Origin: Sedimentisphaerales bacterium
Lineage (GTDB): Bacteria; Planctomycetota; Phycisphaerae; Sedimentisphaerales; SM23-30
DNA length: 64,000 bases
Assembly (NCBI GenBank): GCA_016928435.1
Contig: JAFGKT010000064.1
Location: forward strand, 2,753 to 66,752
Direction of reading: 5' to 3'
The notes below the pieces were generated by a model that made no database searches, was not told where the DNA came from, and worked only from the letters and a program-made list of their open reading frames with translations. This document shows, one piece after another, positions 3,073 to 54,448 of the stretch; positions within the stretch are counted from its first letter, which is position 1; the number at the start of each line of letters is the position of its first letter. A program made the position numbers and the translations under genes.

Positions 3073-4092
3073 TTGGATTTGGCGACATTGAAAGATATTG
3101 CGGAGGCGTTGAATTTGTCGCGGCAGACGGTGTCGCAGATATTGCGGAATCCGAGCCACAATTCTTATTCGGCGGAGACACGTAAAAAGGTTTTGAATGT
3201 TGCCAAGGAGTTGAATTATGTGCCGAATATTTTGGCGCGCGGGTTGGCGCAGGGCAAGACGCATGTTTTGAGTATGGTTGTGCCTTGGAATACTCCGGAA
3301 CTGATGGACACGGCTCAGCGGTCGGCGAAGCAGTTTGGTTATGGTATGATGGTGCAGTTTACGCCGACGCCTGATGTTGAATCGGAAGTTAAGGAGTTGA
3401 TGATCGCGGCGGAACGTCGGGTGGATGGAATCATCTGGATGCCGGTGGTTACTGAGCCGAACCCGACGCGGAGCAAAGTACTGGCGCAAATCCAGGGGAT
3501 GGGCTTGCGAATTGTTTTATTAGAAACATGGGCGCCGGAATTAGCGGAGGCTGATACGGTGCGTTTTGACTATAGCAGCGGAGCTAGGCAGGCGGTTGAA
3601 CACCTTAAGGGACAAGGTTATGAGTTAGTTGTGGCTGTGAGTCATACGAAACACGATCCGCATGATGATCGTGATGAAAGTTTTTTGCAGGCTTGCCGAG
3701 ACTGTGGAGTTGAAGGGCGGTTAGTTTGTGCTGAACCTATGCAATGCACCCCGGATGTTATTGTTCCGATTCTCGATGATGCTCGGTGTCCGGTGGCTTT
3801 TTACTGCGATACTGATTTGTTTGCCCTGGATGTGCTGATGATAGTCAAGGGACAGGGTAAAATTTTGCCGGAGGATGTCGGGGTTGTCGCGGTGGGTGAT
3901 CTGATGATCGGTAATAGGTACCGTACGGGAGAATTGGCGCATCCGAAACTGACTGCTGTGCCGCGTCCCTTTGGCGCGATGGCGGAGCGGGCAATCGATT
4001 TGCTGGTGCGAAAGAAGTCGGATGATGGGCCGCAACATGTGACGATTCCGATGTCTTTGACTGAACGGGATTCGACCAGGCGACGGGGATGA
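3073..4092 (+). CDS. LacI family transcriptional regulator
   Basis: N-terminal HTH ATLKDIAEALNLSRQTVSQILRN followed by a periplasmic-binding-protein-like ligand domain. TTG start per track. Confidence 0.85.
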   Translation: MDLATLKDIAEALNLSRQTVSQILRNPSHNSYSAETRKKVLNVAKELNYVPNILARGLAQGKTHVLSMVVPWNTPELMDTAQRSAKQFGYGMMVQFTPTPDVESEVKELMIAAERRVDGIIWMPVVTEPNPTRSKVLAQIQGMGLRIVLLETWAPELAEADTVRFDYSSGARQAVEHLKGQGYELVVAVSHTKHDPHDDRDESFLQACRDCGVEGRLVCAEPMQCTPDVIVPILDDARCPVAFYCDTDLFALDVLMIVKGQGKILPEDVGVVAVGDLMIGNRYRTGELAHPKLTAVPRPFGAMAERAIDLLVRKKSDDGPQHVTIPMSLTERDSTRRRG

Positions 4093-4227
4093 CGGGACGG
4101 GGCGTTTGGATGGTAGGGGTTTGTTTGGGTTTTTGGTGGACATGGGGGTGGTTTGGGTTTACAAATGGAGGATAGTTGGGCGGGGATGGTGCAGGTTTGC
4201 GAGTAGTGCTGAGATGGGGTATGGCGG

Positions 4228-4716
4228 ATGAAGGTATTAGGTGTTGATCCGGGATTGCGGACGAGCGGCTACGCGGTGGTGGAGTCGCGTGGGCGTGGTT
4301 TGACGATTTTGGACGCTGGGGTTTTTCGGGCGGATGTGAAGTTGGCTTTGGCGGCGCGGTTGGGGCAGTTGTATGATGATGTTTCTCGGTTGTTGGATGA
4401 GCATAGGCCGGGCGTGATGGCGGTGGAGGAGTTGTATGCTCATTACAAGCATCCGCGGACGGCGATACTGATGGGTCATGCTCGCGGGGTGTTTTTGCTG
4501 GCGGCGCATGAGCGGGAAGTGCCGGTTTATGGTTTCGCGGCAACACGGATCAAGAAGAGTTTGACGGGCAATGGTCGGGCGAGTAAGGAACAGATGCAGC
4601 GGGCGGTGCAGTTGCAGTTGGGGTTGGCGGCGGTGCCGAGGCCGGCTGATGTGGCCGATGCGCTGGCGATAGCGATGTGCTGTTTGAATGAAAGACGCTT
4701 GGAAAGTTTGGCGTGA
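4228..4716 (+). CDS. ruvC: Crossover junction endodeoxyribonuclease RuvC
   Basis: MKVLGVDPGLRTSGYAVVE N-terminus, about 160 aa, directly upstream of ruvA-ruvB. Confidence 0.93.
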   Translation: MKVLGVDPGLRTSGYAVVESRGRGLTILDAGVFRADVKLALAARLGQLYDDVSRLLDEHRPGVMAVEELYAHYKHPRTAILMGHARGVFLLAAHEREVPVYGFAATRIKKSLTGNGRASKEQMQRAVQLQLGLAAVPRPADVADALAIAMCCLNERRLESLA

Positions 4717-4741
4717 CGGTGAAGATTAACAGCAGGAGAGT

Positions 4742-5374
4742 ATGCTTAAGATGATAGCGCGGATAATTGGGATATTGGAAGAGCTGGATACCGATAGCAA
4801 TGTGGCGTTGGTGGAGGTGGGGCAGTTGGGTTATGAGGTGATGGTGCCGGGCTATGCGGTGAGTGATTTGTCGGCGCGGGTGGGGCGCGAGGTAGTGCTG
4901 TATTGTTTGGAATATTATGAGGCGAGCGGCGGGATTGGGGGGAATTTGATACCGCGGATAATAGGGTTTCCGCAGGCGCAGGACAAACAGTTTTTTCAGC
5001 GGTTTATTAAGGTTAAGGGGATTGGGGTGCGTAAGGCGTTACGGGCGTTGTCACGACCGATCGGGGAGATCGCGGTCGAGATAGAAACCGGGGACACCAA
5101 GATGCTGGCTACGCTGCCTGAGATTGGCAAGCGCACGGCGGAGCAGATTGTGGCCGAGCTTAAGGGCAAGGTGGAGTTGTTCGCGTTGTCGGGCAAACAT
5201 TTGGTGGCGGAGCATAAGCCGTTGAGCGATGCGGCTCGGGAAGCGCTGGTAATTCTGCTTCAGTTAGGCGAGAAGGAAGTCGAAGCCGAAGCATTGATTC
5301 AGCAGGTGTTGGAGGATAAACCTGAGATAACTACGGACGCGTTGGTGCAGGCGGTGTATCGCTTAAAAGGTTAA
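4742..5374 (+). CDS. ruvA: Holliday junction branch migration complex subunit RuvA
   Basis: MIARIIG..., HhH region KVKGIGVRKALRAL / LPEIGKRTAEQIV, 3-domain size. Alternative ATG at 4751. Confidence 0.9.
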   Translation: MLKMIARIIGILEELDTDSNVALVEVGQLGYEVMVPGYAVSDLSARVGREVVLYCLEYYEASGGIGGNLIPRIIGFPQAQDKQFFQRFIKVKGIGVRKALRALSRPIGEIAVEIETGDTKMLATLPEIGKRTAEQIVAELKGKVELFALSGKHLVAEHKPLSDAAREALVILLQLGEKEVEAEALIQQVLEDKPEITTDALVQAVYRLKG

Positions 5375-9546: not shown

Positions 9547-10176
9547 AACGCTGTTTTTCCTTTCCAACAGTCACATACGTTTACTCTGCTTTACATTACC
9601 CCGGACGGCCTTAAACTGAAGGACATGAGCAATGAAGTAAGGTGTTTTGGATCAGGCATGTTCATGCTGTGGATTTTTTGCTCAAGTCGGTTCAGCCTTC
9701 TGCATTGGCTATCCAGGGAATATCATCGACTGTTTTTAACAGAATCTTGAGAAAAATAAGATTGGTTGAAAGTGGGGTTTCAGGGTTGATATGGTGGTTT
9801 CTGGGGTGGTTATAGGAACTTAATGTCCGGGCCTGAGGGTGTTTGGATAAGGGGGTTGCGACACCTCCTATATTCTCCATGTTGCCTGTATTGCCAGCGA
9901 TTGAGTCCGATAAGTGTTGGATTTGATGGGATTTGGATTTATTGGTTGGTTTTGTGGTTTTTGCGTTATGCTTATCGGTGGTTGGGACGGTGATGTAGGC
10001 GATTGCGTAGTAAGCTGGGGGCGTCTATAATTGATTGTGATATTTCTAAGGATTTTTACACAATTTGAGTGAAACGCGGGCGAAAAGCTCTGAATAGCGG
10101 CCGATTTTTCCGGTTAGATATCGGATTTCTGGGTCTATTTGGATGTTCCGCTGGTGCTATCAAGAGAGAAAGTTTT

Positions 10177-11187
10177 ATGAGCAAGCGTGACTACTATGAG
10201 GTTTTGGGGGTCAGCCGTGACGCCTCGCCGGAGGAGATCAAGAAGAGCTATAGGAAGTTGGCACGGAAGTATCATCCGGATGTAGCAGGGAAAGATCCCA
10301 AGGCGGCGGCTCAATTCAAGGAAGTTAAGGACGCGTATGATGTGTTGAAGGACAAGAAGTCGCGTGCTTCTTATGATCGGTTCGGCCATGCAGCGGAGCA
10401 TATGGGGGGTTGGTCCGGCGGCGGCGGAGAAGGAGGAGGCGGTTTTGGTGGTCAAGGTTTCGATTTTTCGGATATTTTTGGCGGCATGAGGGGTGGTCGC
10501 GGCGGTCGGCGGAGTAATGTCAAGATTAACCTGGGCGATTTGTTTGGCGGCATGGGCGGCGGTGGTGATGAAGATGAGGTTTTCGAGCGTTTGCGCGCGC
10601 AAGGCGGCGGGGCTCGAAGGCGTGGTGAAGATCTAGAACATAAAGTGCGCATTGGTTTTGAAGAAGCGATTCATGGTTCTACGCGTGATGTGGTTTTGAC
10701 CATGCCTCAAGCGGACGGCAGTCGTAAGCAAGAACATTTGAGTGTTAAGATTCCAGCGGGAGTGGATACCGGGAGCAAGATTCGGGTTCGGGGCAAGGGT
10801 CAGCCGGGTATGGGCGGAGACAATGGTGATTTGATCATCAAGGTTGTGGTAGGTGAGCATCCGTATTTTAGGCGGGACGGAGATCGGATAGATTTGGATG
10901 TTCCGGTGACTTTAGCGGAAGCGACGCTGGGCGCTAAGGTGGACGTTCCGACATTGACGGGGATGACGACGGTTACGATACCGCCTGGCAGCAGCGGCGG
11001 AAGCAAATTGCGGTTGAAGGGCAAAGGTGTGAAAGACAACAAGACGGGCAAGACGGGTGATATGTATTTGACGTTGAAGGTGGTATTACCACGAGATTTG
11101 GATGCTGAGTCGCGGAAGTTGGTGAAGCAATTTACGGATTTGAATCCTCAGCCGGACGTGCGTGATGGTTGGAAGCGTTCACAGTAA
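10177..11187 (+). CDS. DnaJ-class co-chaperone lacking the zinc finger (CbpA-like)
   Basis: J domain with HPD (RKYHPDVAG), Gly-rich linker and two C-terminal beta domains, but no CxxCxGxG repeats. ATG at 10177 gives [12 protein letters not shown]. The last four codons and the stop lie inside repeat copy A. Confidence 0.85.
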
Positions 11188-26212: not shown

Positions 26213-27358
26213 TTAAGATTGCGCGGGACGGGAGCGGACGAGTTTGAGCATGACGATGATGGTGATGAGGCAGATAACAGCTAGGATGGCAAAAGCGATG
26301 ATAGCGGAATTATGATTTTGTACTTGCCAACCGGTGGTGGAGTTTGGGTTGTAGATATCTAGATTGCCTGCGATGTCGCGAGAGAGATAATAAGTGCGTA
26401 TGTGTTGACGTACGATTAGATTTCCGGCGAGGCTGAGGGCGGTCAGAATGGTGGTGATGGCCAGGGAGAAGCGGCCGGCGGCTTTGAATGCGGCGACGAT
26501 GCCGGTCAGTAGAGCTAGGCCGATCAGAAACAGAGAAGCGTACCAAATTATGGATATGGAATTTGAGGTATGAAGGAGTTGGGATTGCAGGGGCTTCGGT
26601 AAGGTTTGGAGATACCAGATGGTAAAGGCGATTTGCAGAGGGAGGCCAAGGAAGAAGTATTGCAGGCCGATGCGCGTGGCGTGGCGGTTGATGTTAGTTT
26701 GAGTGAGTTGGGAATCAGGGGCGGGTTTGGATCGGCTTAGCCAAGCCCAGGCTAGTCCGCCCAAGGTGATAATGATGGCGAGATTATGCAGCAATCTTGG
26801 GCCTACGATGGGGTCGGGAACGTGCAGGGCGGAGGTGTGGCGATGAAACTCGATCCAGTGTTCCGGTTGGATGGTGAGTACGGAATTATTGGTCATGATG
26901 TAAAGGATGGCGATGAATGCCAGGGGCATGAGCAATGTGCAAATGAAACCGATTAGGCTTTGCTTGAGGCGAGCGAGATAGGTGCTGATGAATCCGATGA
27001 GCAGCAGGGCGAGTACGGCTAGCCAAAACGGGGCGATGAAGATAGAAGCGGTATAGAACCACGGTCCGTACAGGCATTGGGTAAAAAGCAATGGCGCGAC
27101 GCCGAAGTTGATGGCCAAGGAAATACACAACGGCAAGGAACGGAGCGCGCGGCTGTTTATTTGTCGGTCGATTTCGGAGCGATTACGCAGAAGCAAGCAG
27201 CGCAATAGGAGGATGCAAGATATTCCGACAACGGCGCTGACGAAGATTAGGTGAATCCAGAAGGTTATGGTGGAGAGAGTTACCAGCAGCCACGCAGGAG
27301 CGGGCAGAGCGAGATGTTGGTAGGCTGGGATGTGAGGGGCGGCGGCAGCAGCTATCAT
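26213..27358 (-). CDS. Polytopic membrane protein (possible partner subunit of the bd-like oxidoreductase)
   Basis: About 9-10 hydrophobic segments. Its start overlaps the upstream gene stop by 4 nt (27355-27358). No family motif recognised. Confidence 0.6.
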   Translation of the reverse strand: MIAAAAAPHIPAYQHLALPAPAWLLVTLSTITFWIHLIFVSAVVGISCILLLRCLLLRNRSEIDRQINSRALRSLPLCISLAINFGVAPLLFTQCLYGPWFYTASIFIAPFWLAVLALLLIGFISTYLARLKQSLIGFICTLLMPLAFIAILYIMTNNSVLTIQPEHWIEFHRHTSALHVPDPIVGPRLLHNLAIIITLGGLAWAWLSRSKPAPDSQLTQTNINRHATRIGLQYFFLGLPLQIAFTIWYLQTLPKPLQSQLLHTSNSISIIWYASLFLIGLALLTGIVAAFKAAGRFSLAITTILTALSLAGNLIVRQHIRTYYLSRDIAGNLDIYNPNSTTGWQVQNHNSAIIAFAILAVICLITIIVMLKLVRSRPAQS

Positions 27359-28998
27359 GGCAACGGCTCCCAGTTATCTTTTGCGGTGATGGGTAAGAGG
27401 TTGACACGGTTGGCTTGGTCGTCGAGTGTTTCATGGCAGCGTGAGCATTGGCCGTCGAGGGTGTGCATGAAGTAAGCGAGATCGTCACGGTCGTTGGGTG
27501 AGCCGAAGAATGGGGGCATAAAACCGCGGAAGCTTTCGAGGTGTTCGAGCGAACGGGCGAGCATGGTTGGGGTCCAGTTACGGACGAGTGGTTTGATGGC
27601 GTTGTAGCCATCGAAATCGTGGCAGCGGAGGCATTGGGCGTTGTAAATCCATTGGCCGCGGATTGCTTGGCCGGTGCGATGCTGACGAAGCAGGTTGGCG
27701 AATATCAAGGGGTCTTGAGTGTAGAACTCGGCCTCGCTAATGGTGAACTCAGCGAGATGGGCGCCTTGACGATCGAGAGGCAGTTGCGCGACGGTCAGGC
27801 CCAGCTCCAGGGCGATAGCTTGCGGATCGGTGACGATGGGGATGTTTACATCGATGGGGTTTATGGCCCAGGGATGGAATCGCAGTACGGTGTCGTTGGG
27901 GACGGGGCCGGTATAGGGCAGATCGCGGAGTTGGGCGATGGTGGCTTCACGACGTATGGGTTGCTGGGCGGTGAGAGTGTCGCGTATGGCAGGTGCTTGG
28001 GATTTGAGTATGCCGTTGCTGTAAACGTGATTCCAGATGAGGTAAGGTTTGCGCATTCCTTCGCGAACGAATTCGGATGCGCCGGTGGCGATAAATGCCA
28101 AGATTAGCAGCAGCAACGCGGTGCCAAGTGTTACGGAATGTTTGCGGACAATAATGAAGGTGTAGCTATAGAAAGCGATGAGGGTGAAACCTACCAGAGC
28201 GAAGGCGAAGAGCAGTCCCATTACGACGGAGCCGCCGGTAAGATAGGATAACGACAAAGGCGGGCAGCGGAAAAAGTACCATACGGCGGCGGGTATAGCC
28301 AGGACAAGCGGCAGAAGGGCTTTGCCAGCCAGTTGGGTTAGGCGATCACGTTCGGCGGGGGTGTATTTACGGGAAGCGTTGATAAGAACCAAGGCAAAAA
28401 GTGCGCCGAGAGTGAGAGCGCTGATGGTGCGAAGGATAAGCGAAGGCCAATAGGCTGGGTTGAACAATCCGGGCCAGAAAGAGAATGTGAAAGGGGTGGT
28501 GGATGAATCGAAGATGTGGCCAGGGGTTATCATGAAAGTCAATATGCCGTTGATTACCACCAGCGAGAGGAAAGCGGACACGGCGTACACCCAGCCGATG
28601 AAACAATGAGCTCGGGGCGAAATGGTTTTCCAAGTGTAGTAATAGAGATATCCGGAAATGATTTCGACGGTGAACAAGAGCCATTCGAGGGCCCAGGCCC
28701 AGAGGAACAGGTGGATGAGTATGGAGGTGGTTTCGGGACTGACGATAGAGATGGAAAACCAGATGCCTACGCCGGTGACTACACCGCCGATCAGAGGAAG
28801 CAATATGATTAGTTTGCTGTTATCGCGGAGAAATTTTTGGATAGCGGTGTCGTTGTGTCTGAGGGCGTGGGTTTCGGCGATGGCGTTGAACAGTCCGGCC
28901 CCCACAGCGAAGTGCGCTATGAACACATGGACGATGGCGATCGAGGCGATGACCATCGCGCCTCCGAAATAAGGCAGATACCAAATAGGATAATCCAT
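27355..28998 (-). CDS. Cytochrome bd-type (CydA-like) membrane subunit fused to a C-terminal dihaem cytochrome c domain
   Basis: The N-terminus (IAIVHVFIAHFAVGAGLF ... WAWALEWLLFTVE) resembles CydA helices. Two CxxCH motifs: CLRCH (27619-27633) and CSRCH (27433-27447). Confidence 0.7.
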   Translation of the reverse strand: MDYPIWYLPYFGGAMVIASIAIVHVFIAHFAVGAGLFNAIAETHALRHNDTAIQKFLRDNSKLIILLPLIGGVVTGVGIWFSISIVSPETTSILIHLFLWAWALEWLLFTVEIISGYLYYYTWKTISPRAHCFIGWVYAVSAFLSLVVINGILTFMITPGHIFDSSTTPFTFSFWPGLFNPAYWPSLILRTISALTLGALFALVLINASRKYTPAERDRLTQLAGKALLPLVLAIPAAVWYFFRCPPLSLSYLTGGSVVMGLLFAFALVGFTLIAFYSYTFIIVRKHSVTLGTALLLLILAFIATGASEFVREGMRKPYLIWNHVYSNGILKSQAPAIRDTLTAQQPIRREATIAQLRDLPYTGPVPNDTVLRFHPWAINPIDVNIPIVTDPQAIALELGLTVAQLPLDRQGAHLAEFTISEAEFYTQDPLIFANLLRQHRTGQAIRGQWIYNAQCLRCHDFDGYNAIKPLVRNWTPTMLARSLEHLESFRGFMPPFFGSPNDRDDLAYFMHTLDGQCSRCHETLDDQANRVNLLPITAKDNWEPLP

Positions 28999-40680: not shown

Positions 40681-43266
40681 TTACTTATCGAAGGTGAAGC
40701 TGTGTGCTTGGGCGTCGATTTTTACGGTGTCGCCGTCGGTGTATTGGCCGGCCAGGATTTTTTGGGCGAGGGGGTTTTCCAATTTTTGCTGAATGGTGCG
40801 TTTTAATGGCCGGGCGCCATAGGAGACGTCGTAGCCTTCTTCGAGGAGCATGTCTTTAGCGGCATCGGATATTTGCAGTTGCAGGTGTTTTTGTGCCATT
40901 CGTTTTTGCAGATAGCCCAGTTGTATGTCCACGATTTTGCGCAGTTGTTCTTGGCCGAGCGGATGGAAGACGATGGTTTCGTCCACACGGTTAAGGAACT
41001 CCGGGCGGAAGAATTGTTTGAGTACATCTTTGACATGGGCTTCGATTTCCCAGTCGGCTCCTTTTTCTTCGCGGAGTTTTTGGATTTGGGCGCCGGCGAT
41101 ATTGCTGGTCATGATGATAAGGGTGTTTTTGAAGTCGACGGTTCGGCCGTGGCCGTCGGTCAATCGGCCGTCGTCCAGCACTTGCAGCAAAACATTAAAT
41201 ACATCGCGATGGGCTTTTTCAATTTCGTCGAGTAAGATTACGCTATATGGTTTGCGTCTGATAGCTTCGGTGAGTCGGCCGCCTTCTTCGTAGCCGATGT
41301 ATCCGGGAGGCGCGCCAATCAACCGGGCGACGCTGTGTGGTTCCATGAACTCACTCATGTCGATACGCACCATGGCGTTTTCGTCGTTAAATAAGAATTC
41401 CGCCAGGGCACGGCTGAGTTCGGTTTTGCCTACGCCGGTCGGGCCTAAGAAGATGAAGCTGCCCATCGGTCGATTAGGATCGCCCAGTCCGGCCCGAGCG
41501 CGACGTATAGCATTGCTTACGGCTTGGACGGCTTCTTCTTGGCCGACGACTCGCTTGGATATCTCCGTTTCCATGTGCAGCAGTTTTTCCATTTCACCGG
41601 TGAGTAGTTTGCTAACCGGTATGCCGGTCCATTTAGCGACGACATGGGCGATTTCATCTGGGGTGACTTCTTCTTTGACCAGGCTGTTGCCGTTATGTTG
41701 CTGAGCGGCTTTTTCTTGAGCTTGTTCAAGATTTTTTTGTAACTCCGCGATTGTGCCATAACGCAACCTCGCTGCGGTTTCCAAGTCGCCGCGGCGCTGG
41801 GCTTCTTCTAGTTCGCGTTGAGCTGTGTCAATTTGTTCTTGGATGTTCTTAGCTTCTTTGAGCAGACCGGTTTCGGCTTCCCAACGGGCCGTCAAGGCGT
41901 GGTCCTGTTCTTCCAGGTCAGCTAACTGTTCTTGCAGTTTTGCCAACCTTTGTTTGGATGCTTTGTCAGTTTCTTTTTTGAGTGCTTCGCGTTCGATTTG
42001 CAGTTGCATTATTCGACGGCGCAGCTCATCGAGTTCACTGGGCAGCGAATCGTTTTCGATGCGCAAACGCGAGGCGGCTTCGTCGATGAGGTCGATAGCT
42101 TTGTCAGGCATGAATCGGTCAGCGATATAGCGATTGCTCAGGGTTGCCGCGGCGACCAAGGCGCTGTCGGTGATACGCACACCGTGATGAATGTCGTAGC
42201 GTTGTTTTAATCCGCGTAATATCGCGATGGTGTCTTCGACGGAAGGTTCATCAATAAGAATCGGTTGGAAGCGTCGTTCCAGGGCGGCGTCTTTTTCGAT
42301 GTATTTACGATATTCGTCCAGAGTGGTGGCGCCGATACATCGCAGTTGTCCGCGCGCCAGGGCGGGCTTGAGCAGGTTGCCCGCATCGACGGCGCCTTCG
42401 GCTTTGCCGGTACCGACTACCAAGTGCAGTTCGTCAACAAATAGAATGATCTGGCCATCGGAATCGGTGACTTCTTTAAGCACAGCTTTGAGACGGTCTT
42501 CGAATTCGCCGCGAAACTTTGCGCCCGCAATCAAAGCGCCCATATCCAAACCGATAACCCGTTTGTCTTTTAAGCCCGCGGGCACATCGCCGTTAACAAT
42601 ACGTTGGGCGAGACCTTCGACGATAGCGGTTTTACCTACACCTGGTTCACCGATCAGGACAGGGTTGTTTTTGGTACGCCGGCCTAGCACCTGCATGCAA
42701 CGGCGGATTTCCTCATCGCGACCGATGACCGGGTCGAGTTTGCCTTTGCGGGCTAGTTCGATCAGATCGATGCCGTACTTTTCCAGGGTTTGATATTTGT
42801 TTTCGGGATTGGCATCAGTCACTTTTTGTCCGCCGCGAATTTCCTGCAAAGCCGCGAGTACCTCATTGCGATTGACAGCGTTGACTTCAAGCAGTTCCTT
42901 GGCAGGACTGGGTACTTCCAGCAACGCCAACAGAATATGCTCGGTGCTGAGATATTCATCTTTGAGGGTGTCCGCTTCTTTGTTGGCTTGGATCATTACC
43001 TTCTGCAGGGCTGCGTCGCCGGTCAGTTGGCCTGCCCCGCTGACTTGGGGTAAGCGATCCAATTCGTCTTTGGTCATACTGATAATTTGGTCAACATTAC
43101 AGCCGGTTTTGTTCAGTATGGCGGGGACTATACCGCCTTGGGCGTCTTGGAAAAGTCCAGCCAAGACGTGAAGCGGGGTGAGATTGGCGTGGCCGGAGTT
43201 CGTGGCGATTTCCTGGGCGGTGGCCAAGGCTTGCTGAGCTTTGATTGTCATTTTTTCAAATCGCAT
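40681..43266 (-). CDS. clpB: ATP-dependent chaperone ClpB
   Basis: Clp N-domain, NBD1 GEPGVGKT, long middle coiled coil, NBD2 GPTGVGKT, 861 aa. Confidence 0.97.
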
Positions 43267-43391
43267 AATTTATTCCTTTTATATGCTGCTGTCCGTTAGT
43301 GGTTTAGCTGTCGCCGGTGGTGTTATGCAGTTTGGGCCCTTTCGCGTTGGCTGTAACAGGCAATATATTCCACCATACTCAAAGTCTTGTT

Positions 43392-43407
43392 CGCAAATAC
43401 CGTGCCA
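43392..43407 (-). promoter_or_regulatory. Sigma-54 (-24/-12) promoter candidate for clpB
   Basis: The minus strand reads TGGCACGGTATTTGCG, matching TGGCACG-N4-TTGC with exact GG/GC spacing. It lies about 125 nt upstream of the clpB ATG. Confidence 0.65.
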
Positions 43408-43494
43408 TAAAGCGGATGTTTTGTTTAAGTATTTGTGGTAAAAGGCTTTATATTGCAATGGTTTTTGGAGAAGATTTGACGGAGTTTAAAAGTC

Positions 43495-43597
43495 TGCCAT
43501 TGTGGCATGAAATAGGTCCAGTTTGCGGCTGTGGCAGTTGGACTTTATACAGCCTGTCAGGTTGGCACGGACATCTGCCAACATTGCCACAGTGGCA
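43495..43597. promoter_or_regulatory. Cluster of TGCCA/TGGCA palindromes (candidate enhancer-binding-protein sites)
   Basis: TGCCA-TTG-TGGCA (43495-43507), TTGGCA-N8-TGCCAA (43562-43581), TGCCA-CAG-TGGCA (43585-43597). All lie midway between the two sigma-54 promoter candidates. Confidence 0.45.
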
Positions 43598-43697
43598 GGC
43601 TATCCCTGAGGGCGGATGGGTGAGACGATAATTGTCAATAGCGTAAAATGTTTTACAGCAATAGTTTACGATCTAGTACGAAGGTTTGTAGTTTTTC

Positions 43698-43713
43698 TGG
43701 CATTGTCTTTGCT
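43698..43713 (+). promoter_or_regulatory. Sigma-54 (-24/-12) promoter candidate for groEL-groES-groEL
   Basis: TGGCATTGTCTTTGCT matches TGGCAY-N5-TTGCW with exact spacing. It lies about 115 nt upstream of the groEL ATG. Confidence 0.6.
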
Positions 43714-43804
43714 TTGTGTGACGACATAGAGTCGGAGTCTAGCCTGACTCCGTGGCAAAGAATAAATCGGTAGTGACAATTTGAGTTACTTTTAAATCCG
43801 CTAG

Positions 43805-45526
<1,722 letters not shown>

Positions 45527-45627
45527 TAGTTCTTGCCTTAGCGGCCCCTGAGTAAATACCAACTGTAATATAGTTAAGTAGAAGTTTTTACATAAAACCA
45601 GATTTTTAATCATAGGAGTTTAGAAGT

Positions 45628-45918
45628 ATGAAGGTTAAGCCATTAGATGATAGAGTGTTGGTAAAGCAGTGTGATGCCGAGACTAAAACGGCCGGCGGTA
45701 TTGTTCTGCCTGATTCTGCCCAAGAGAAGCCTCAACGCGGCATCGTGCAACAATGCGGCCCGGGCAAAATGCTCGACAGCGGCGAACGTGGCGGCATGAG
45801 TGTCAAAAGTGGCGACGAAGTCTTCTACGGCAAATATGCCGGTACGGAAGTCCAAATCGATCAAGAGACCTACGTTATTCTGCGGGAAAGCGACATTTTG
45901 GCGATCCTGACCAAGTAA
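45628..45918 (+). CDS. groS: Co-chaperonin GroES
   Basis: MKVKPLDDRVLVK ... GDEVFYGKYAGTEV, 96 aa. Confidence 0.96.
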   Translation: MKVKPLDDRVLVKQCDAETKTAGGIVLPDSAQEKPQRGIVQQCGPGKMLDSGERGGMSVKSGDEVFYGKYAGTEVQIDQETYVILRESDILAILTK

Positions 45919-46036
45919 CGGTTATTATCGCAATTAAAGCAAAAACTCTTAAGCCGGTTTGTCGGCGGGGTACAAGATGTGCTGACGTGAAAACGTGACG
46001 CGGATTTGACCCTCAGAGATAGAATGGAGTTATATA

Positions 46037-47647
46037 ATGGCCAAGCAAATGATGTTTGATGATGCCGCCCGAAAAGAAATTCAGGACGGCCTGATGCGGC
46101 TGGCTTCAGCGGTGAAGGTTACGATGGGGCCGACGGGTCGTAACGTGATCCTGCAGAAAAGTTTCGGTTCGCCCCGTGTCACCAAAGATGGTGTTAGTGT
46201 TTCCAAAGAAATCGAACTGCCCGAGCCTTTTGCCAACATGGGCGCGAAAATGGTGAATCAAGTAGCCAGCAAGACCAGTGATGTGGCCGGTGACGGCACA
46301 ACCACGGCTACGGTTCTTGCCGAAGCGATCTACACCGAAGGGCTCAAATATGTTGCCGCGGGTGTAAATCCCATGTCGCTGCAGCGCGGTATTAACAAAG
46401 CTGTCGCGGTGGCGGTAGAGTCAATCGCCAAGCAGAGCAAAAAGGTTAAAGGCAGCGACGATATCGCCAAGGTCGGTGCTATAAGCGCCAATAACGATCC
46501 GCAGATCGGCAAGCTTTTGGCTGAAGCCATGGACAAAGTCGGCAAGCAGGGCGTTATCGAAGTCGAAGAAGGTAAAGGTATCGAGACTGAACTGGAAGTT
46601 GTCGAAGGTATGCAGTTCGACAAAGGTTTTCTGTCGCCTTACTTTATAACCAAGGCCAGCAGTATGGAAGCCGTTCTGGAAGATTGCTATATTCTCATTC
46701 ACGAGAAGAAGATCAGCAATCTGCGGGAGTTGGTTCCGTTGCTGGAAAAAATCGCCGGCTCCGGCAAGCCGTTGTTGATGATTGCTGAGGATGTTGAAGG
46801 CGAAGCCCTGGCGGCTTTGGTTATCAACAAGCTGCGCGGCGTGCTGCACGTTTGTGCGGTTAAAGCTCCCGGCTTTGGTGATCGTCGCAAAGCCATGCTG
46901 GGTGATATCGCGGCGTTAACCGGCGGGCAAATGATCAGCGAAGATCTGGGCTTGAAACTGGAAAACATCGAAATGTCCCAATTGGGCCAAGCTCGTCGTG
47001 TTGTTATCACCAAAGAGAACACCACGATTGTCGATGGTGCCGGTGCCAAGAAAGATATCAAAGCCCGCATCAATCAAATCGAAAGTCAAATTGAAAAAAC
47101 CACCAGCGATTATGATCGTGAGAAACTACAAGAGCGTCTCGCCAAGTTAACCGGCGGCGTTGCTGTTGTAAGAGCCGGTGCTCCAACCGAAACCGCGATG
47201 AAGGAACGCAAGGATCTGTTGGAAGACGCTCTGCATGCAACCCGGGCCGCGACCGAAGAAGGTGTAGTACCTGGCGGCGGCGTGGCGTTGCTGCGGGCGA
47301 TTAAGACGGTTCAGCAGGCGCAAAAGGATATCGTCAACGACGAGAAATTCGGTTTCGAGATCATCGCCAAAGTACTAAAGGCCCCGGCGCGTCAGATTGT
47401 CGAGAATAGTGGTGCCGACGCGGCCATGGTGATTTCAGAGCTGATGGAGAAAACCGGCTCGGCTGGGTATAATGCCGCCAAGGGTGAGTTTGTTGACATG
47501 CTAGAAGCTGGTATTATCGACCCTGCCAAGGTTACCCGCGCTGCTTTGCAGAACGCCGGCAGCGTCGCTGGGCTTATGTTAACAACCAAGGTTCTGATTA
47601 CCGATCTCAAAGATGATGAAGAACCTGTGCAGGGCGCGATTAGCTAA
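46037..47647 (+). CDS. groL: Chaperonin GroEL (copy 2, acidic tail, no GGM repeats)
   Basis: [34 protein letters not shown]. Ends [14 protein letters not shown]. Confidence 0.97.
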
Positions 47648-47942
47648 CATCTAAGTGGAATGTCCGGATGATATTTTCCGGGTTCTGTTTAGATACTGAT
47701 CGTTGCTTGTTGATGAAGTAATTTGACAGCCGTGGTCACGATGTTGGCTCTGTATGATTGCTCGCAAAATGCTATATGATCTAGAATAGCGTTAGCGGGA
47801 CTAAATCAAACAGGCAAGACATCGTGGCCGACGGTGGTTTTTGTTTCGAGAACAATTCTCGATATGCAAACTGAGGCTATGCGACGGCGCAATTTGCCGT
47901 TTTTGGGTCATTGGCCCATAGCTGTTGTTTTGGATGGGCTTT

Positions 47943-49097
47943 ATGGCAGCAACCAAACGCGACTACTATGAAGTGTTGGGCGTTAAACGCGATTCCAGCC
48001 CGGAAGACATCAAACGCGCCTATCGGCGTTTGGCGATGAAATATCATCCGGATCGCAACCCAGACCAGCCCGAATGTGAGCAGAAGTTCAAAGAATGCGC
48101 TGAAGCCTACGAAGTACTCAGCGACTCGCAAAAACGACAGCAGTATGATCGTTTCGGCCATGAAGGACTGCGCGGCAGCGGAATGCACGACTTCTCGCAT
48201 ATGCGCTCCGATGATATCTTCAGCATGTTCGATGATATCCTGGGTGGTGTTTTTGGCGGTGGTCGTCGGCGCGGTGGTCGATCGGGCAACCGTGCGGCTC
48301 GCGGTTATGATATCGAAACCCAAGTCACCATCAGCATGCAAGAAGTACTCAGCGGCGTAGAAAAGCTGCTGGAGTTCAAGCGACGTGATCTTTGCCCGCA
48401 ATGCAAAGGCAGCGGCGCCGAGCCTGGTCATGATCGTGAACCTTGTGCCCAGTGTGGCGGTCAAGGCCAAGTAGCCCAATCAGGTATGGGCGGACTGTTT
48501 CGTATGGTTACCACTTGTCCGCGTTGTAAAGGCGCAGGCAGTGTAGTAACTCATCCGTGCAAAGCATGTCATGGTCAAGGAATGGTCGAGAAAGAGCGTA
48601 AGCTGACTCTCAAGATTCCCGCCGGCATTAGTGACGGACAAGCAGTTCGGGTTACCGGTGAAGGCGAACCCGGCCAGCACGGCGGTCCATCGGGTGATTT
48701 GTATTGCTATGTTAGAGTGAAGGGGCACGATTTTTTGCATCGCGAAGGCGATGACTTGGTAGTGCGTTTGCCGATAAGTTTCAGCCAAGCGGCATTAGGC
48801 GCTACCGTTGAAGTACCTTCTTTGTCCGGTCGGCGCGAAATAGAAATACATCCGGGTACGCAGCATGGCGCGGTGATCGAAGTCAAAGGCCAAGGTTTAC
48901 CCAATATTCGTAGCGGCCGGCGCGGTTCGCTGCTGGTGCAGGTTTTGATCGAGATTCCTAAGAAGCTCAACAAAGAACAGAAGAAGCTGTTGCGGCAATT
49001 TGCCGAGACCGAAGATAAAACTGTATTGCCGGAAAGCAAAGGGTTTTTTGATAAACTCAAAGATTACTTTGCCGGCGAAAGTCACAATTCCAACTAA
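47943..49097 (+). CDS. dnaJ: Molecular chaperone DnaJ (type I, with zinc finger)
   Basis: J domain HPD (KYHPDRNP), G-rich linker, four CxxCxGxG repeats ([32 protein letters not shown]). Confidence 0.96.
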
Positions 49098-49123
49098 ATG
49101 CTTTACGCTGTAAATGAGTTATT

Positions 49124-49744
49124 ATGAGTAGCAAAAAGGATAAAAAAGCGGGTAAGTCAATTCCGATTGAATCTGCGGAAGAATCTATTGATTCAGCTCA
49201 GCCCACAGAGGGTCAGCCGGAATCGCAATCTCCGGAAGTTGTCGAAGAACCAGCGGCTGAGCCTTCGTTAGAACAACAGTATGAGCAGTTGAAAGCGAGA
49301 TATCAACGCCTGGGTGCCGACTACGCCAACTACCAGAAACGCAGTCAGCGCCAGATTGAACAGGCGTCTCAGTTCGCCCAGGAAAGTGTTGTTCGGGCCA
49401 TTTTGCCGGTTCTGGATAATTTTGATCATACTTTGGTTCAGGGCAGCGAGGATATGAATCCCGCGGCAATTCTGCAAGGGGTCCAAATTGTTTACGATCA
49501 TCTGACCAAGACTCTCAGCGGTTTTGGTATGGAGCGGGTGGCAGTCAAAGTGGGTACTGATTTTGACCCCACCATTCACGAAGCGGTTCTACATGAAGAA
49601 AGCGCTGAATTGGAGCCTAACCAAGTTGTCCGCGAGTTAGCTGCCGGTTACACAATGAACGAACGTACGATTCGTCCAGCCAAAGTTTCCGTTGCCAAGG
49701 CGCCCAGTGAACCGCAGACCGAAGAAGAAACGACGGAAGAATAA
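49124..49744 (+). CDS. grpE: Nucleotide exchange factor GrpE
   Basis: Coiled-coil region followed by the GrpE beta domain (VVRELAAGYTMNERTIRPAKVSV). Follows dnaJ. Confidence 0.9.
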   Translation: MSSKKDKKAGKSIPIESAEESIDSAQPTEGQPESQSPEVVEEPAAEPSLEQQYEQLKARYQRLGADYANYQKRSQRQIEQASQFAQESVVRAILPVLDNFDHTLVQGSEDMNPAAILQGVQIVYDHLTKTLSGFGMERVAVKVGTDFDPTIHEAVLHEESAELEPNQVVRELAAGYTMNERTIRPAKVSVAKAPSEPQTEEETTEE

Positions 49745-49968: not shown

Positions 49969-50325
49969 ATGCCGACCTACGAATACAAATGCGAAGCTTG
50001 CGGTCACGATTTCGAGCAGTTCCAATCTATCACTGCTGATCCGATTCGCAAATGTCCAGCTTGCGGCAAAAACAAAGTCAAAAGACTGATCGGAATGGGA
50101 GCCGGGCTGATATTCAAAGGCTCGGGGTTCTATCAAACGGATTACCGCAGCGAAGGCTATCACAAAGCCGCCAATGCCGATAAGAGTTCCGCTTCCAGCA
50201 GCAGTGCCAAGAGCACCGATAGCGGTTCCAGTAAGAATAGCGATTCTAGTTCCAGCGGTTCGAGTTCTTCTTCAGGCGGCAGCGGCGGTTCTGGTTCGGC
50301 CGGCCAATCTAAGAGCGATTCATAG
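49969..50325 (+). CDS. FmdB-family zinc-ribbon protein with Ser-rich tail
   Basis: MPTYEYKCEACGHDFE ... KCPACG signature. The C-terminal half is an S/G low-complexity region. Confidence 0.85.
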   Translation: MPTYEYKCEACGHDFEQFQSITADPIRKCPACGKNKVKRLIGMGAGLIFKGSGFYQTDYRSEGYHKAANADKSSASSSSAKSTDSGSSKNSDSSSSGSSSSSGGSGGSGSAGQSKSDS

Positions 50326-50388
50326 GTTGATTGTGAATCGGCGCGATTTGCGTTTTGGTGTTTGCTGTTTTTTTAGGTGCGCATCTCT

Positions 50389-50574
50389 ATGGCTCAATTT
50401 CGCTGTCCTATTTGTCGTAAAGTCTTCTCAGATGTCGCTGGCTCGGATGTGTCTTTTTTGCCTTTTTGCAGCGAGCGTTGCCAATTAATAGATTTGGGAA
50501 ACTGGTGCGACGGCCGCTATAGCATTCCCGTGGAAGAAGATTCTGATTCCACGATCCCGCCTTTGGATGATTAA
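50389..50574 (+). CDS. yacG: DNA gyrase inhibitor YacG (zinc-binding)
   Basis: CPICRK ... PFCSERCQLIDLGNW motif, about 60 aa. Confidence 0.8.
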   Translation: MAQFRCPICRKVFSDVAGSDVSFLPFCSERCQLIDLGNWCDGRYSIPVEEDSDSTIPPLDD

Positions 50575-50715: not shown

Positions 50716-51555
50716 ATGGCTGAGATACCGCGCAATTCCGCTGACCTTACAAGTCAATCAAACTCTCCTGACGCGGCTTTAGACAACACAACCGAGCTTT
50801 ATAGTTCAGATAAGTATATCACCCACTATCCGACACTTTTTACTGAGCATTCCGCGTGGAAGATGACCAAGCTGTGTCCGCCTCTGGATATTTGGCACAA
50901 GCAGCTTGCTACGAGTACACAGCAAGTAGGATTGCTCGATGTTGGGGGCGGTGCCGGTCTAATTCTAAAAGCCACCGCTGAGCATATCCAAAAAGCGTAT
51001 GGTTGTCAGGTACGCAAATACGCTTTGGATTTGAGCCCAGCCATGCTGGAAACCCAGCGACAAAATAACCCCGATCTAATTGAAGCTCTCCAGCAAGATA
51101 TTACCGCTACTGGTTTTCCTGACAAAACCTTTGATCTGACTTTAATGATCGATGTTTTGGAGCATGTGCCGGACCCCGAGGCGGTTTTGCGGGAGCTGAA
51201 GCGCATTTCGCATTATGTACTTTTGAAGGTTCCGCTGGAGGATCATTTGGTCAATCGTCTTTCGGATTTCCTTAACCGGGGACAGACGCGCCGAAGCCAC
51301 CGTGAAATTTTGGGCCATGTCAACTTTTACACAGCGTCTTCACTTCGCCGTCAATTAACCGGTCATCTGGGCCGAGTTTTGCATTTTGATTATACCAATG
51401 CCTTTGAGTTCACGCTCCGTAGCGAACCGACGCAGCCCAAAGCCGTTTTGCGTCTGGTCAACCGGTTGTGTCGCGGTTTGTATCGTTTTTCACCTCGTGT
51501 CGCATCCGGGGTGTTCACGGATTTTGCCGTGGTTCTGGTTTGCTGTAATCCTTAA
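50716..51555 (+). CDS. Class I SAM-dependent methyltransferase
   Basis: Motif I LLDVGGGAGL and post-I acidic loop. The substrate is not inferable. Confidence 0.8.
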   Translation: MAEIPRNSADLTSQSNSPDAALDNTTELYSSDKYITHYPTLFTEHSAWKMTKLCPPLDIWHKQLATSTQQVGLLDVGGGAGLILKATAEHIQKAYGCQVRKYALDLSPAMLETQRQNNPDLIEALQQDITATGFPDKTFDLTLMIDVLEHVPDPEAVLRELKRISHYVLLKVPLEDHLVNRLSDFLNRGQTRRSHREILGHVNFYTASSLRRQLTGHLGRVLHFDYTNAFEFTLRSEPTQPKAVLRLVNRLCRGLYRFSPRVASGVFTDFAVVLVCCNP

Positions 51556-51691
51556 AGCCTCAGCAGTCAGAGCTTTACGGATAGGGGGTTTTTGCTTGAG
51601 TTACGCCGATATTGCCGATAATATTGTTGGTGTTACCAATTTGAAGCGTTTTTCAACACGGATGATCCATTTGTAGGAGGCCAGGAAGGCC

Positions 51692-53575
51692 GTGAAAAAA
51701 CAAGATAGTACCGGGCAATTGGGTTTTGCCTTTGAATCTGAGCAGGAGTCTGTCGCTACCATCGTGAAACCGACCAAGAAGAAGAAAAAGACCACAGCGA
51801 AAAAAACCGCAACCGATAAAGGCAAAACCGATAAACTTGTCTTGCCCAGCAAAACCAAGCCGGCAAAAAAAGAAAAAGAAGATCCGATTATCAAGAAGCG
51901 CAAGCAGAAAGATATAGTTCGGAAAAAAATAGAGCAAATTTCGGAAGACAAGATTGAAGCCCAAGCTCAATTAATGGCTTCCAAGCAGCGTGATATAAGC
52001 GTCAGTGAGTTTTTTGCCAAGAATCGTCATCTCTTAGGTTTTGACAATCCCCGTAAAGCCCTGTTGACCGCGGTCAAAGAAGCGGTGGACAATTCTCTGG
52101 ATGCTTGCGAAGAAGCTCAGATTCTCCCGGTCATTGAAGTGGGTATTACCCAGACTGCTGACGACCGTTTCAGAATATGGATCCAGGATAACGGTCCGGG
52201 TATCGTCAAACAGCAGATTCCTAATATTTTCGGCCGATTGCTTTACGGCAGTAAGTTCCATACCTTGCGTATGGCGCGGGGTCAACAAGGCATAGGCATA
52301 TCCGCGGCCGGCATGTACGGTTTGCTCACCACCGGTAAGAGTGTAAAAATCACCAGCCGGACCGGCCCGCGCAGCCAAGCCCACTATTACGAACTGCAAA
52401 TCAATACCCAAAAGAATCGTCCGGAGATCATCGAAGACCGTGTGACTGACTGGGAGGCTTCCAGCGGCACACGGGTAGAAATTGAAATGGAGGCTCGCTA
52501 CCAGCGCGGTCGACAAAGCGTCGATGAATACCTTGCCCAAACCGCTATCGCCAATCCACATGCGGAATTTCGTTACGTTCAACCCGATGGCCAGGTGTTG
52601 ATCTACGAACGCTCGGTACCGGATGTTGTCGAAGTACCTAAAGCCGTCAAGCCTCATCCTTATGGCGTGGAACTGGGCGTACTAATGAAGATGGCCAAAG
52701 ACACCCCCGAGAAAACCATGACATCGTTTCTTAGCGAAGAGTTTTCGCGGGTTAGTTCCAAGGTTTCCCAAGAGATTCTCGACAAAGCCAAAATCTCCGC
52801 GCGTAAAAACCCATCGACCATAAACCATGCCGAGGCGGAAAAGCTCTATCGGGCTATCAACGACACTAAAATAATGGCGCCTAGTACCCGTTGTGTGGTT
52901 CCCATAGGTGAAGACGCTTTGCTCAAGGGGCTGCAGCAGGTGGTTGAAGCGAGCTTTTACACGGTTTGTACTCGTCCGCCGGCGGTTTATCGCGGTAACC
53001 CTTTCCAGATCGAAGCCGGTTTAGCCTACGGGGGCAAACAACAAAATGATATCGAAGAAGAAGACTTCGAGCTTGGCAAAAACGGCAATGGCAACGGCAA
53101 TGGTAATGGCAATCAAGAACAAATGCGCGTGTTGCGTTTCGCTAATCGCGTGCCGTTGCTTTATCAGCAGTCAGCCTGTGGTATTTTCAAAGCTGTCACC
53201 CAGATGAATTGGCGTTTGTATGGTCTGTCGCAGAGCCGCGGTTCGCTACCGGCAGGTCCCGTTACCGTTATGGTGCATATAGCGTCCGTATGGGTGCCGT
53301 TTACCTCCGAAAGCAAAGAAGCTGTCGCTCATTATCAGGAAATTCTCAAAGAAGTGAAACTCGCTCTGGGTGAATGCGGTCGGCGGTTGGGTACGTACCT
53401 GCGCGGCCAAAAACGCCGGCGCGACGAATCGCTCAAACGCAGCTATATCGAAAAATATCTCCCAGCTATCGGCGAGGCGCTGCGTGATATCCTGTCGCTC
53501 AAAGACCAACAAGTTGACACCATGTTGGAGCATTTGGAGTATGTCTTGGAACACAGCCGCAGCACCAAGATATGA
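51692..53575 (+). CDS. top6B: DNA topoisomerase VI subunit B (GHKL ATPase) with Lys-rich N-terminal extension
   Basis: Bergerat fold: N-box KEAVDNSLDA, G1 QDNGPGI, G2 GQQGIGISAAG. Transducer motif WVPFTSESKEAVA. GTG start at 51692 follows AGGAAGG; an alternative ATG at 51974 would remove the K-rich region. Confidence 0.85.
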   Translation: MKKQDSTGQLGFAFESEQESVATIVKPTKKKKKTTAKKTATDKGKTDKLVLPSKTKPAKKEKEDPIIKKRKQKDIVRKKIEQISEDKIEAQAQLMASKQRDISVSEFFAKNRHLLGFDNPRKALLTAVKEAVDNSLDACEEAQILPVIEVGITQTADDRFRIWIQDNGPGIVKQQIPNIFGRLLYGSKFHTLRMARGQQGIGISAAGMYGLLTTGKSVKITSRTGPRSQAHYYELQINTQKNRPEIIEDRVTDWEASSGTRVEIEMEARYQRGRQSVDEYLAQTAIANPHAEFRYVQPDGQVLIYERSVPDVVEVPKAVKPHPYGVELGVLMKMAKDTPEKTMTSFLSEEFSRVSSKVSQEILDKAKISARKNPSTINHAEAEKLYRAINDTKIMAPSTRCVVPIGEDALLKGLQQVVEASFYTVCTRPPAVYRGNPFQIEAGLAYGGKQQNDIEEEDFELGKNGNGNGNGNGNQEQMRVLRFANRVPLLYQQSACGIFKAVTQMNWRLYGLSQSRGSLPAGPVTVMVHIASVWVPFTSESKEAVAHYQEILKEVKLALGECGRRLGTYLRGQKRRRDESLKRSYIEKYLPAIGEALRDILSLKDQQVDTMLEHLEYVLEHSRSTKI

Positions 53576-53611: not shown

Positions 53612-54448
53612 ATGAGTTATCTTGAAGCGATTCTGTTGGGCATTGTTCAAGGCCTAACCGAATTTCTCCCAGTCTCCAGTTCCGGCCATCTTGTGATCCT
53701 CCAGCACTGGTTCAAACACAACCCCGATGACCCAGCTATGATACTTTTCGATCTGGCGCTGCATCTGGGTACCGTGGTCGCGATACTTTTCTATTATCGC
53801 CACAGCATAAAGAAGTATTTTCAGCACCTATTCACCAGCCTTGCCGACCTGAACCACCCCGGCAAGCTCTATCATCAATCCGCGAGTATTCGTTTTACTC
53901 TCTTAGCGGGCATTGCGATTGTGGTGACGGGTCTTTTCTATGCTCTGTTCAAAGATATCGTCGAAAAAGGTTTCGAAAAGGCCTGGATTGTGGCGGTGTG
54001 TTGGCTCATCACCGCGGCGGTGTTGTTGCTGACTGACCAGCGCAAACACGCCCGGCGGAGTCTTAGGCAGTTTGGTATCATCGCGGCGGTGTTGGTGGGG
54101 TTGGCCCAAGGAGCGGCATTGTTTCCAGGTATTTCACGCAGCGGATCGACTATTTGTGTGGCGGTTCTGCTGGGTTTGCATCGGCGCTGGGCTGGGGAGT
54201 TCAGTTTTCTTATCGGCGTCCCGGCGATTCTGGGTGCCGCCCTGCTGAAAGGCAAAGAATTCTTCGAGCTTGACCATTCCGCCTTGGACTGGGGACCCTT
54301 ATTGGCGGGTTCTGTCATCAGCGCGGTGGTGGGGTTGGCGGCCTTATCGCTGTTGATATGGGCTCTGCGTAGGGCGAAACTAAAATATTTTGCAGCGTAT
54401 TGTGCTGTAATTGCAGTAGTTACGTTAATCGTGCTGGCTGTGCATTAG
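53612..54448 (+). CDS. uppP: Undecaprenyl-diphosphate phosphatase
   Basis: GIVQGLTEFLPVSSSGHL and PGISRSGSTI motifs; 8 TM. Confidence 0.95.
   Translation: MSYLEAILLGIVQGLTEFLPVSSSGHLVILQHWFKHNPDDPAMILFDLALHLGTVVAILFYYRHSIKKYFQHLFTSLADLNHPGKLYHQSASIRFTLLAGIAIVVTGLFYALFKDIVEKGFEKAWIVAVCWLITAAVLLLTDQRKHARRSLRQFGIIAAVLVGLAQGAALFPGISRSGSTICVAVLLGLHRRWAGEFSFLIGVPAILGAALLKGKEFFELDHSALDWGPLLAGSVISAVVGLAALSLLIWALRRAKLKYFAAYCAVIAVVTLIVLAVH

Follow-up and report, generated by a model that had tools for sequence, protein, structure and literature searches.

The stretch of DNA studied here (the window) comprises 64 kb out of a 117.7-kb contig (JAFGKT010000064.1) from the metagenome-assembled genome (MAG) of a Sedimentisphaerales bacterium, and all window-wide negative results below cover that 64 kb. 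It carries an intact, genuine and full-length gene, top6B, for the B subunit of topoisomerase VI (Topo VI-B) of a bacterial clade, and the gene very likely encodes a functional subunit whose A partner (Top6A) is unlinked. Sedimentisphaerales is an order within Phycisphaerae, Planctomycetota. The enzyme and its occurrence in this order are already known, and the NCBI entry identical to the window protein is already annotated as [quoted passage not shown]. What is new is a previously undescribed motif in the N-terminal tail. The lineage-specific variations are a clade-wide unlinking from the A gene, this conserved motif with its basic tether, and a hot-spot loop in the transducer. Coordinates of all features are collected in Table 1.

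Family models, alignment to solved structures and comparison of the predicted fold agree with the original prediction that the protein is Topo VI-B and not a member of another GHKL family. It scores 667.4 bits against NCBIfam NF003218 (cut-off 274), with residues 90–615 covering model positions 3–505 of 539, and 527.1 bits against TIGR01052 (cut-off 380.7). Pfam identifies Topo-VIb_trans (PF09239, 1.7e-54, residues 397–579) alongside the GHKL ATPase domain HATPase_c. The best solved relative is the M. mazei Topo VI-B (2q2e_B, 483 bits). An AlphaFold2 (AF2) model was built on 40 homologues, with a mean predicted local distance difference test score (pLDDT) of 73. In Foldseek, its top 16 matches are all Topo VI-B from M. 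mazei or S. shibatae (E 4e-52 to 6e-32), the best being the M. mazei protein with an alignment spanning 526 columns, whereas GyrB, ParE and MutL reach only about 1e-9. MutL itself was rejected on this difference and on its TIGR00585 score (18.8 bits against a cut-off of 180), a histidine kinase of the PhoQ type on 19.5 bits against a cut-off of 497, and an Hsp90-type protein on family-model scores and Foldseek matches that both favour Topo VI-B. The best 120 homologues are 57–80% identical to the window protein, which indicates strong purifying selection; those with a name belong to Sedimentisphaerales, Phycisphaerae or Planctomycetota, except for one MAG labelled Actinobacteria (P0073).

The functional parts of the enzyme are all in place. 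The Bergerat-fold boxes EAVDNSLDA, DNGPGI and GQQGIGIS and the transducer motif WVPFTSESKEAVA are present exactly as first quoted, and conservation was scored for them in a 40-sequence alignment of homologues, in which E130, D133 and N134 of the N box are invariant, as are the whole G1 and G2 boxes. The switch-lysine loop WVPFTSESKEAVA corresponds in the alignment to VPFTSESKDAIA in M. mazei and IPYKSAGKESIA in S. shibatae, with K542 seated in an invariant SESKEA. Further upstream in the transducer, NWRLYG is the counterpart of KWKQYG of M. mazei, a type of stretch that is said, after Wendorff and Berger in 2018, to have a role in DNA sensing. An H2TH domain, which Topo VIB-like proteins, GyrB and MutL do not have, lies between the GHKL domain and the transducer, as seen from the unbroken alignment to M. 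mazei residues 212–314 and from a helical segment at 328–392 in the AF2 model, which also places C-terminal helices at 549–601 and 605–624. Conservation is as high in the transducer, the switch-lysine loop and the long C-terminal helices as it is in the ATPase.

Compared with the M. mazei Topo VI-B (PDB: 2Q2E, 9O0G), the window protein has the GHKL ATPase, H2TH and transducer domains in the same order and 44–46% identity over about 520 aligned columns, and it shares the N, G1 and G2 boxes, the WKxY-like stretch and the switch-lysine loop. Unlike the M. mazei protein, it has no C-terminal Ig-like domain, the alignment ending near M. mazei residue 495 of 621; its own additions are an N-terminal extension of some 85 residues and, at 450–474, a loop of roughly 25. 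Topo VIII, the fused type IIB enzyme, was rejected as an identity: the protein stops after the transducer helices, no Toprim or 5Y-CAP domain was found, and the neighbouring genes are housekeeping ones. Topo VIII and Mini-A (Takahashi et al., 2019, PMC7671362) are likewise bacterial type IIB relatives, some of them in Planctomycetes, but Topo VIII is a fused B–A polypeptide on mobile elements, whereas the window protein is B only and scores above the Topo VI-B equivalog threshold.

In the topoisomerase VI mechanism, two B subunits dimerise on ATP via the Bergerat fold and capture the T-segment, and the transducer helix and switch lysine relay this to the Toprim/5Y-CAP A dimer, leading to cleavage of the G-segment. 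The window gene would supply the ATP-binding B subunit of such a canonical A2B2 enzyme in its bacterial form, so that two copies would dimerise and capture a T-segment and the relay through K542 would signal the A dimer to cut the G-segment. The B gene would have become separated from the A gene in Phycisphaerae/Sedimentisphaerales, with A elsewhere in the chromosome, a location that we infer for the window genome and that is reported for the order. The holoenzyme would most likely be the cell's decatenase and relaxase, replacing a missing Topo IV. PMC8837201 describes topoisomerase VI, in the form of the M. mazei enzyme, as a preferential decatenase. Topo IV (ParC/ParE) is the likely functional equivalent, as an ATP-dependent type II decatenase behind the fork, but it is a type IIA enzyme with a three-gate mechanism, and its homology to Topo VI is restricted to the GHKL and Toprim modules.

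The gene had been described as an orphan with no A subunit nearby, and the local part of that statement holds. No Top6A was found in the window with tblastn using archaeal fragments (taken from PDB alignments to yeast Spo11, and without a match in the compared loci either), with bacterial and archaeal profile hidden Markov models run against all six-frame open reading frames (ORFs; best E 0.32), or with Pfam scans of 30 large ORFs. Twelve related contexts (L002, L003, L004/5, L006, L007/8, L092, L093 and L095–L099, L001 being the window locus itself) likewise have no A gene within 10 kb of B. They include contigs of 4.59 and 6.15 Mb, three others, and seven metagenome loci in which B is 53–75% identical; the metagenome scan with the window B and specific peptide patterns returned 14 loci, and no A was found near B at those where B has at least 53% identity. 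In M. mazei, by contrast, the B gene is operonic with A and adjoins the gyrase genes (PMC2647321).

A neighbor-joining tree calculated for the B core without support values, with its root at M. mazei, places the window protein in a monophyletic clade of 27 sequences whose sister is a large bacterial clade. Five of the 12 contexts (L095–L099; B 55–59% identical) form a second, deeper-branching unlinked clade. B is unlinked from A throughout the monophyletic Sedimentisphaerales/Phycisphaerae clade (the window and seven contexts) and in the five contexts of the second. This clade-wide separation would mean that the heterotetramer can assemble without its genes sharing an operon.

The A side of the pair was approached with an archaeal Top6A profile, which was searched against 50%-identity representatives and yielded one isolated bacterial A clade (P0280, P0305, P0329, P0360, P0380, P0389) with its own signature, YRTLKVGSGNAAH. 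A scan of GTDB at one genome per species with this clade gave at least 576 bacterial loci, and the best 80, those closest to P0280, were examined. They come from Planctomycetota, Proteobacteria, Acidobacteriota, Myxococcota and others, with none labelled Sedimentisphaerales. B is present in 72 of these 80 loci, 48–59% identical to the window B and always on the same strand upstream of A, and the gap between the two genes is 300 bp or less in 60. At five loci A stands without B in the fetched flanks (L011 10001–11629, L019 6373–7518, L028 5518–6642, L071 5692–6723 and L083 10001–11089); seen from A, other lineages too have the two genes apart. Candidates for a Sedimentisphaerales A did not survive inspection: P0329 is of Myxococcota type, P0345 and P0314, which have basic N-termini, each lie next to their own B, and P0380 lies on a 924-bp contig. 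In a homologue search with a 189-aa fragment of M. mazei Top6A, a poor query, the matches listed were all partial archaeal proteins no longer than 331 aa.

At the level of the order, the orphan label is not supported. Allen & Maxwell (2024) gathered topo VI-A and VI-B from 17 families of bacteria, Anaerohalosphaeraceae and Sedimentisphaeraceae among them, and list both subunits for Anaerohalosphaera lusitana and Sedimentisphaera cyanobacteriorum (PMC11302465, Fig. 6, Suppl. Table 2). The presence of A in Sedimentisphaerales is drawn from these two cultured species and is extended by inference to the window MAG, where the A gene would have been relocated and the pair kept. The same work states that gyrase is present and topo IV absent in topo VI carriers outside Pseudomonadota and Terrabacteria, those of PVC included (PMC11302465). 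The Planctomycetota enzymes that it treats (S. cyanobacteriorum, A. lusitana, Pirellula staleyi) belong to the same family as the window protein and are proposed as the decatenase of hosts that have gyrase and lack topo IV, but in its available text neither an extension or motif nor unlinked genes are mentioned (“operon” and “N-terminal extension” each occur 0 times).

Two loci met during these scans are recorded for themselves. On an ENA contig (L089, 115–3144), Top6B is broken into two ORFs of 261 and 352 aa, and a divergent Top6A with a Lys-rich N-terminus (KKQTTLM...) directly follows them; the neighbours are many small ORFs without Pfam matches, and the sequence may be that of a virus or a DPANN-like genome. 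On the 916-kb contig of L006, the unlinked top6B is preceded, about 5 kb upstream, by a GyrA/ParC-type gene of 941 aa (2064–4889).

The N-terminal extension sets the window protein apart from the archaeal enzymes. Family models and PDB alignments begin only at residues 90–98, and in the AF2 model pLDDT is below 50 at residues 1–60, while a helix at 85–98 joins the core. At least 40 residues precede the conserved core in 118 of 120 homologues, encoded in DNA of 40–65% GC. Before the SEFFAKNR anchor the homologues carry 12–38 Lys and Arg residues (median about 26) without conservation of sequence. Proteobacterial Topo VI-B genes lack the whole extension. An extension of about 94 residues had been predicted at roughly 40% Lys; its existence is borne out, but residues 1–94 hold 26.6% Lys (25/94) and only residues 25–80 reach 39%. 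Its description as a DNA-binding tail is plausible, and the Lys-rich middle probably adds non-specific DNA affinity, but it is incomplete, as the tip also bears a conserved short linear motif.

The GTG start proposed for the gene is borne out by homology: it is the only in-frame start codon 5′ of the conserved motif beginning at Q9, which settles the start. The ribosome-binding site first assigned to it, AGGAAGG, exists but ends 2 nt before the GTG, and an AGGAGG further upstream is better spaced. Scans for promoters and terminators gave nothing informative.

The tip of the extension, KKQDSTGQLGFAFESE (residues 1–30 begin MKKQDSTGQLGFAFESEQES), reads GQLGFAFESE at residues 8–17. Scored as Q[LM]x[LFM]x[FL] or Qxx[LM]F, the motif is found in 75 of 118 homologues, its median position being 11; when these extensions were shuffled 500 times, the mean number of sequences with a match was 0.32 and no shuffle gave more than 4. 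It is present in 62 of the 65 members of the closest group, the three exceptions resembling truncated gene calls, and the position profile is KK-x3-G-Q-[LM]-[SNTD]-[FL]-x-F-[ED]-x-[ED]. Variants within the family include QLSLF, QMSLF, QLNLF, QLNLFF, QLSLPF and QMTLF. The planctomycete sister clade, in which B and A are operonic, has the same layout before the core, with PTLFD or QxxLF followed by acidic residues and a Lys-rich stretch.

Peptides that bind the beta sliding clamp, such as those of Pol II/IV/V, MutS and Hda, typically occupy a disordered terminus and have acidic neighbours. Their consensus has been published as QL(S/D)LF (PMC9690074), and a preprint recognises pentapeptide and hexapeptide classes (bioRxiv 10.64898/2026.05.27.728225). 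QLGFAF resembles this degenerate consensus and lies in a segment with pLDDT below 50. Like known clamp binders (QL[SD]LF or QLxLxL), the window family combines a short Gln-Leu-x-hydrophobic-x-hydrophobic peptide with a disordered terminus; unlike them, it usually has Phe in place of Leu. The tip may dock into the clamp's hydrophobic cleft, which we regard as possible, at somewhat less than an even chance. The disordered extension of about 85 residues would then act in two parts, the Lys-rich middle holding DNA and the tip G-Q-L-G-F-A-F-E-S-E docking in the clamp, and this docking would recruit an enzyme of archaeal derivation to newly replicated DNA.

Other readings of the gene and its extension can be set against these results. 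If the lineage kept only B, the subunit would work without Top6A, as a DNA-dependent ATPase or clamp or with a non-homologous nuclease. The lack of A in the window and within 10 kb of B in the 12 contexts fits such a true orphan, as does the recovery of no Sedimentisphaerales A among the matches listed, but it is difficult to reconcile with a transducer, switch-lysine loop and C-terminal helices as conserved as the ATPase, given that these helices presumably contact A, as we take the 2Q2E and 2ZBK structures to show. The sister B genes share an operon with A, unlinked A genes lacking B are met in Planctomycetota MAGs as well (L011, L019, L028, L071), and both subunits are listed for two species of the order (PMC11302465), leaving a true orphan very improbable. 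About as improbable, and in our estimate a shade more so, is that the extension is an annotation artefact, the protein starting at Met95 (ATG at 51974) behind an A-rich frame that is open by chance. Such a protein would begin where the archaeal enzymes begin, A-rich sequence is poor in stop codons, and the Shine-Dalgarno-like element nearest the GTG is imperfectly spaced; yet nearly all homologues keep the extension in frame across a wide range of GC content, a frame left open by chance would not keep a peptide conserved some 10 residues into the protein, and the GTG is the sole in-frame start upstream of that peptide.

The nature of the tail is more evenly contested. An ordinary Topo VI-B may simply carry a non-specific DNA-binding or solubility tail, whose tip binds a partner other than the clamp (Top6A, an SMC/ParB-type protein or a protease adaptor) or folds back, and we hold this to be a serious possibility, though a little short of an even chance. 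The planctomycete A subunits also start with a Lys/Arg-rich tail and have no Q-motif, the motif of the B family departs from QL[SD]LF, having F at position 4 and PTLFD variants, and our literature search found no publication tying Topo VI to a clamp-binding motif; we know of no type IIB topoisomerase that binds the clamp. A non-specific tail sits less well with the enrichment and fixed position of the motif (75/118 against 0.3 expected), with exact classical variants in the family (QLSLF, QMSLF, QLNLF, QLSLPF), and with the disordered, acidic-flanked terminus that clamp-binding peptides typically have. The extension is wholly absent from proteobacterial Topo VI-B, whose host groups are able to retain Topo IV (PMC11302465). 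The fuller proposal that joins these elements is that a clamp-binding peptide and basic tether adapted Topo VI to the replisome, where it replaces Topo IV, with the subunit genes split in Sedimentisphaerales/Phycisphaerae; we advance it tentatively and consider it rather less probable than its negation. Several points count against the readings proposed here. Clamp binding is suggested by resemblance of the motif; at the Leu of the classical hexapeptide Phe stands in most clade members (QLxFxF), many sequences of the sister clade have PTLFD and no Gln, and distant Phycisphaerae homologues keep the basic tail but often have no recognisable motif (present in 13 of 53). The decatenase role is drawn from the M. 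mazei enzyme (PMC8837201) and from relatives, in which Topo IV is absent, and the A gene of the window genome was not retrieved, with none from Sedimentisphaerales among the matches listed.

If the clamp proposal is right, the enzyme would be the first of type IIB to be linked with the sliding clamp. In E. coli, Topo IV is positioned by its partners MukBEF and SeqA (PMC11253446), and Allen & Maxwell (2024) raise the role of bacterial Topo VI and the integration of a horizontally acquired archaeal enzyme as open questions (PMC11302465). A conserved docking peptide would give these questions a concrete hypothesis, namely clamp-mediated recruitment of the decatenase in bacteria without Topo IV. 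If the motif has nothing to do with the clamp, what is left is an ordinary housekeeping gene that is already annotated.

The second departure from the archaeal enzymes is the transducer loop. The Asn-Gly run had been predicted as an insertion, and NGNGNGNGNGN indeed occupies residues 464–474 (DNA 53081–53113) and is absent from the archaeal proteins, but it is not isolated, being part of a variable loop of about 25 residues for which pLDDT is below 50 at 452–474. The run, (NG)5N, is encoded by a tandem repeat of GGCAAT ×5. Across 115 homologues, the stretch between NPFxIE..YG and RFANRVPL (including a conserved ELMRVL) measures 21–45 residues, abounds in D, E, G, N and K and shows no sequence conservation; (NG) repeated at least twice occurs in 14 of the 115, with the (NG)5 of the window being the longest. 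At the same site the operonic planctomycete sister clade has a different, conserved insert of 38–43 aa (KPGGVGLEVTDEGRIRKKKK...TEDLV; L009–L045, e.g. L009 8080–9684), the L095–L099 clade has its own conserved insert (GELGPDPSAEDEENG...VVRRGKVVQE), Acidobacteriota and Myxococcota types have 12 residues, and M. mazei has about 11. PMC11302465 mentions a helical bundle adjoining the transducer in Pirellula staleyi, and the 38–43 aa insert may be this “alpha-helical bundle”. The variation suggests a permissive surface loop, with a hexanucleotide repeat that resembles slippage. The loop is a mutational hot spot for which a specific function is not needed.

Table 1. Position of top6B, of the elements within its product, and of adjoining genes in the window
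Feature	Position	Strand	Remarks
yacG (PF03884)	50377–50574		1118 bp upstream of top6B start
SAM (S-adenosylmethionine) methyltransferase	50716–51555		Pfam marks on identical Logan contig
Shine-Dalgarno-like AGGAGG	51675–51680	+	11 nt upstream of GTG; consensus resemblance only
top6B coding sequence	51692–53575	+	627 aa, GTG start, TGA stop, from ORF listing
N-terminal extension	51692–51973	+	Residues 1–94; without counterpart in archaeal Topo VI-B
QLGFAF, candidate beta-clamp-binding motif	51716–51733	+	Residues 9–14; conserved short motif
Lys-rich low-complexity linker	51764–51931	+	Residues 25–80; 39% Lys; predicted disordered
Bergerat-fold N box EAVDNSLDA	52079–52105	+	Residues 130–138; catalytic Glu130, Asn134; aligns to M. 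mazei KEAVDNALDA
G1 box DNGPGI	52187–52204	+	Residues 166–171; invariant, D166–I171
G2 box / ATP lid GQQGIGIS	52280–52303	+	Residues 197–204; invariant, G197–S204
Variable acidic/Asn-Gly loop, transducer	53039–53113	+	Residues 450–474; no counterpart in M. mazei, S. shibatae
NWRLYG, transducer	53207–53224	+	Counterpart of M. mazei KWKQYG by alignment; W507, Y510 invariant
WVPFTSESKEAVA, switch-lysine (K542) loop	53291–53329	+	Residues 534–546; W534–A544 invariant
uppP/BacA	53612–54448		Pfam marks on identical Logan contig

The flanking genes are, as first described, a SAM methyltransferase and uppP. The latter also lies downstream of top6B in two relatives (L093 9938–10729; L092 13415–14011) and is the sole conserved neighbour found. 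The original prediction had further pointed to yacG, encoding a gyrase inhibitor, about 1.1 kb upstream; its position is correct, but the functional link hinted at was rejected, since neither yacG nor the methyltransferase adjoins B in any relative examined, and the proximity is best treated as coincidence. Other genes of the window are housekeeping ones (among them ruvCAB, two dnaJ, two groEL, clpB, grpE, recG, flagellin), which indicates chromosomal DNA and not a mobile element. No dnaN was found in the window in the Pfam scans of the 30 large ORFs.

Some further features of the window deserve mention. A heat-shock cluster at 40681–49744 contains clpB (on the minus strand), two adjacent groEL paralogues (43829–45526 and 46037–47647), dnaJ and grpE, and the second dnaJ is found at 10069–11187. 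Directly upstream of yacG, positions 49969–50325 encode a Zn-ribbon (PF09723) protein with a Ser/Gly-rich low-complexity C-terminal half. A large ORF at 15–2909, which probably runs off the start of the window, combines a Type ISP restriction-modification C-terminal specificity domain with an N6 methylase domain. On the minus strand, 27355–28998 encodes an unusual fusion of a partial match to cytochrome bd subunit I with a C-terminal cbb3-type cytochrome c domain.

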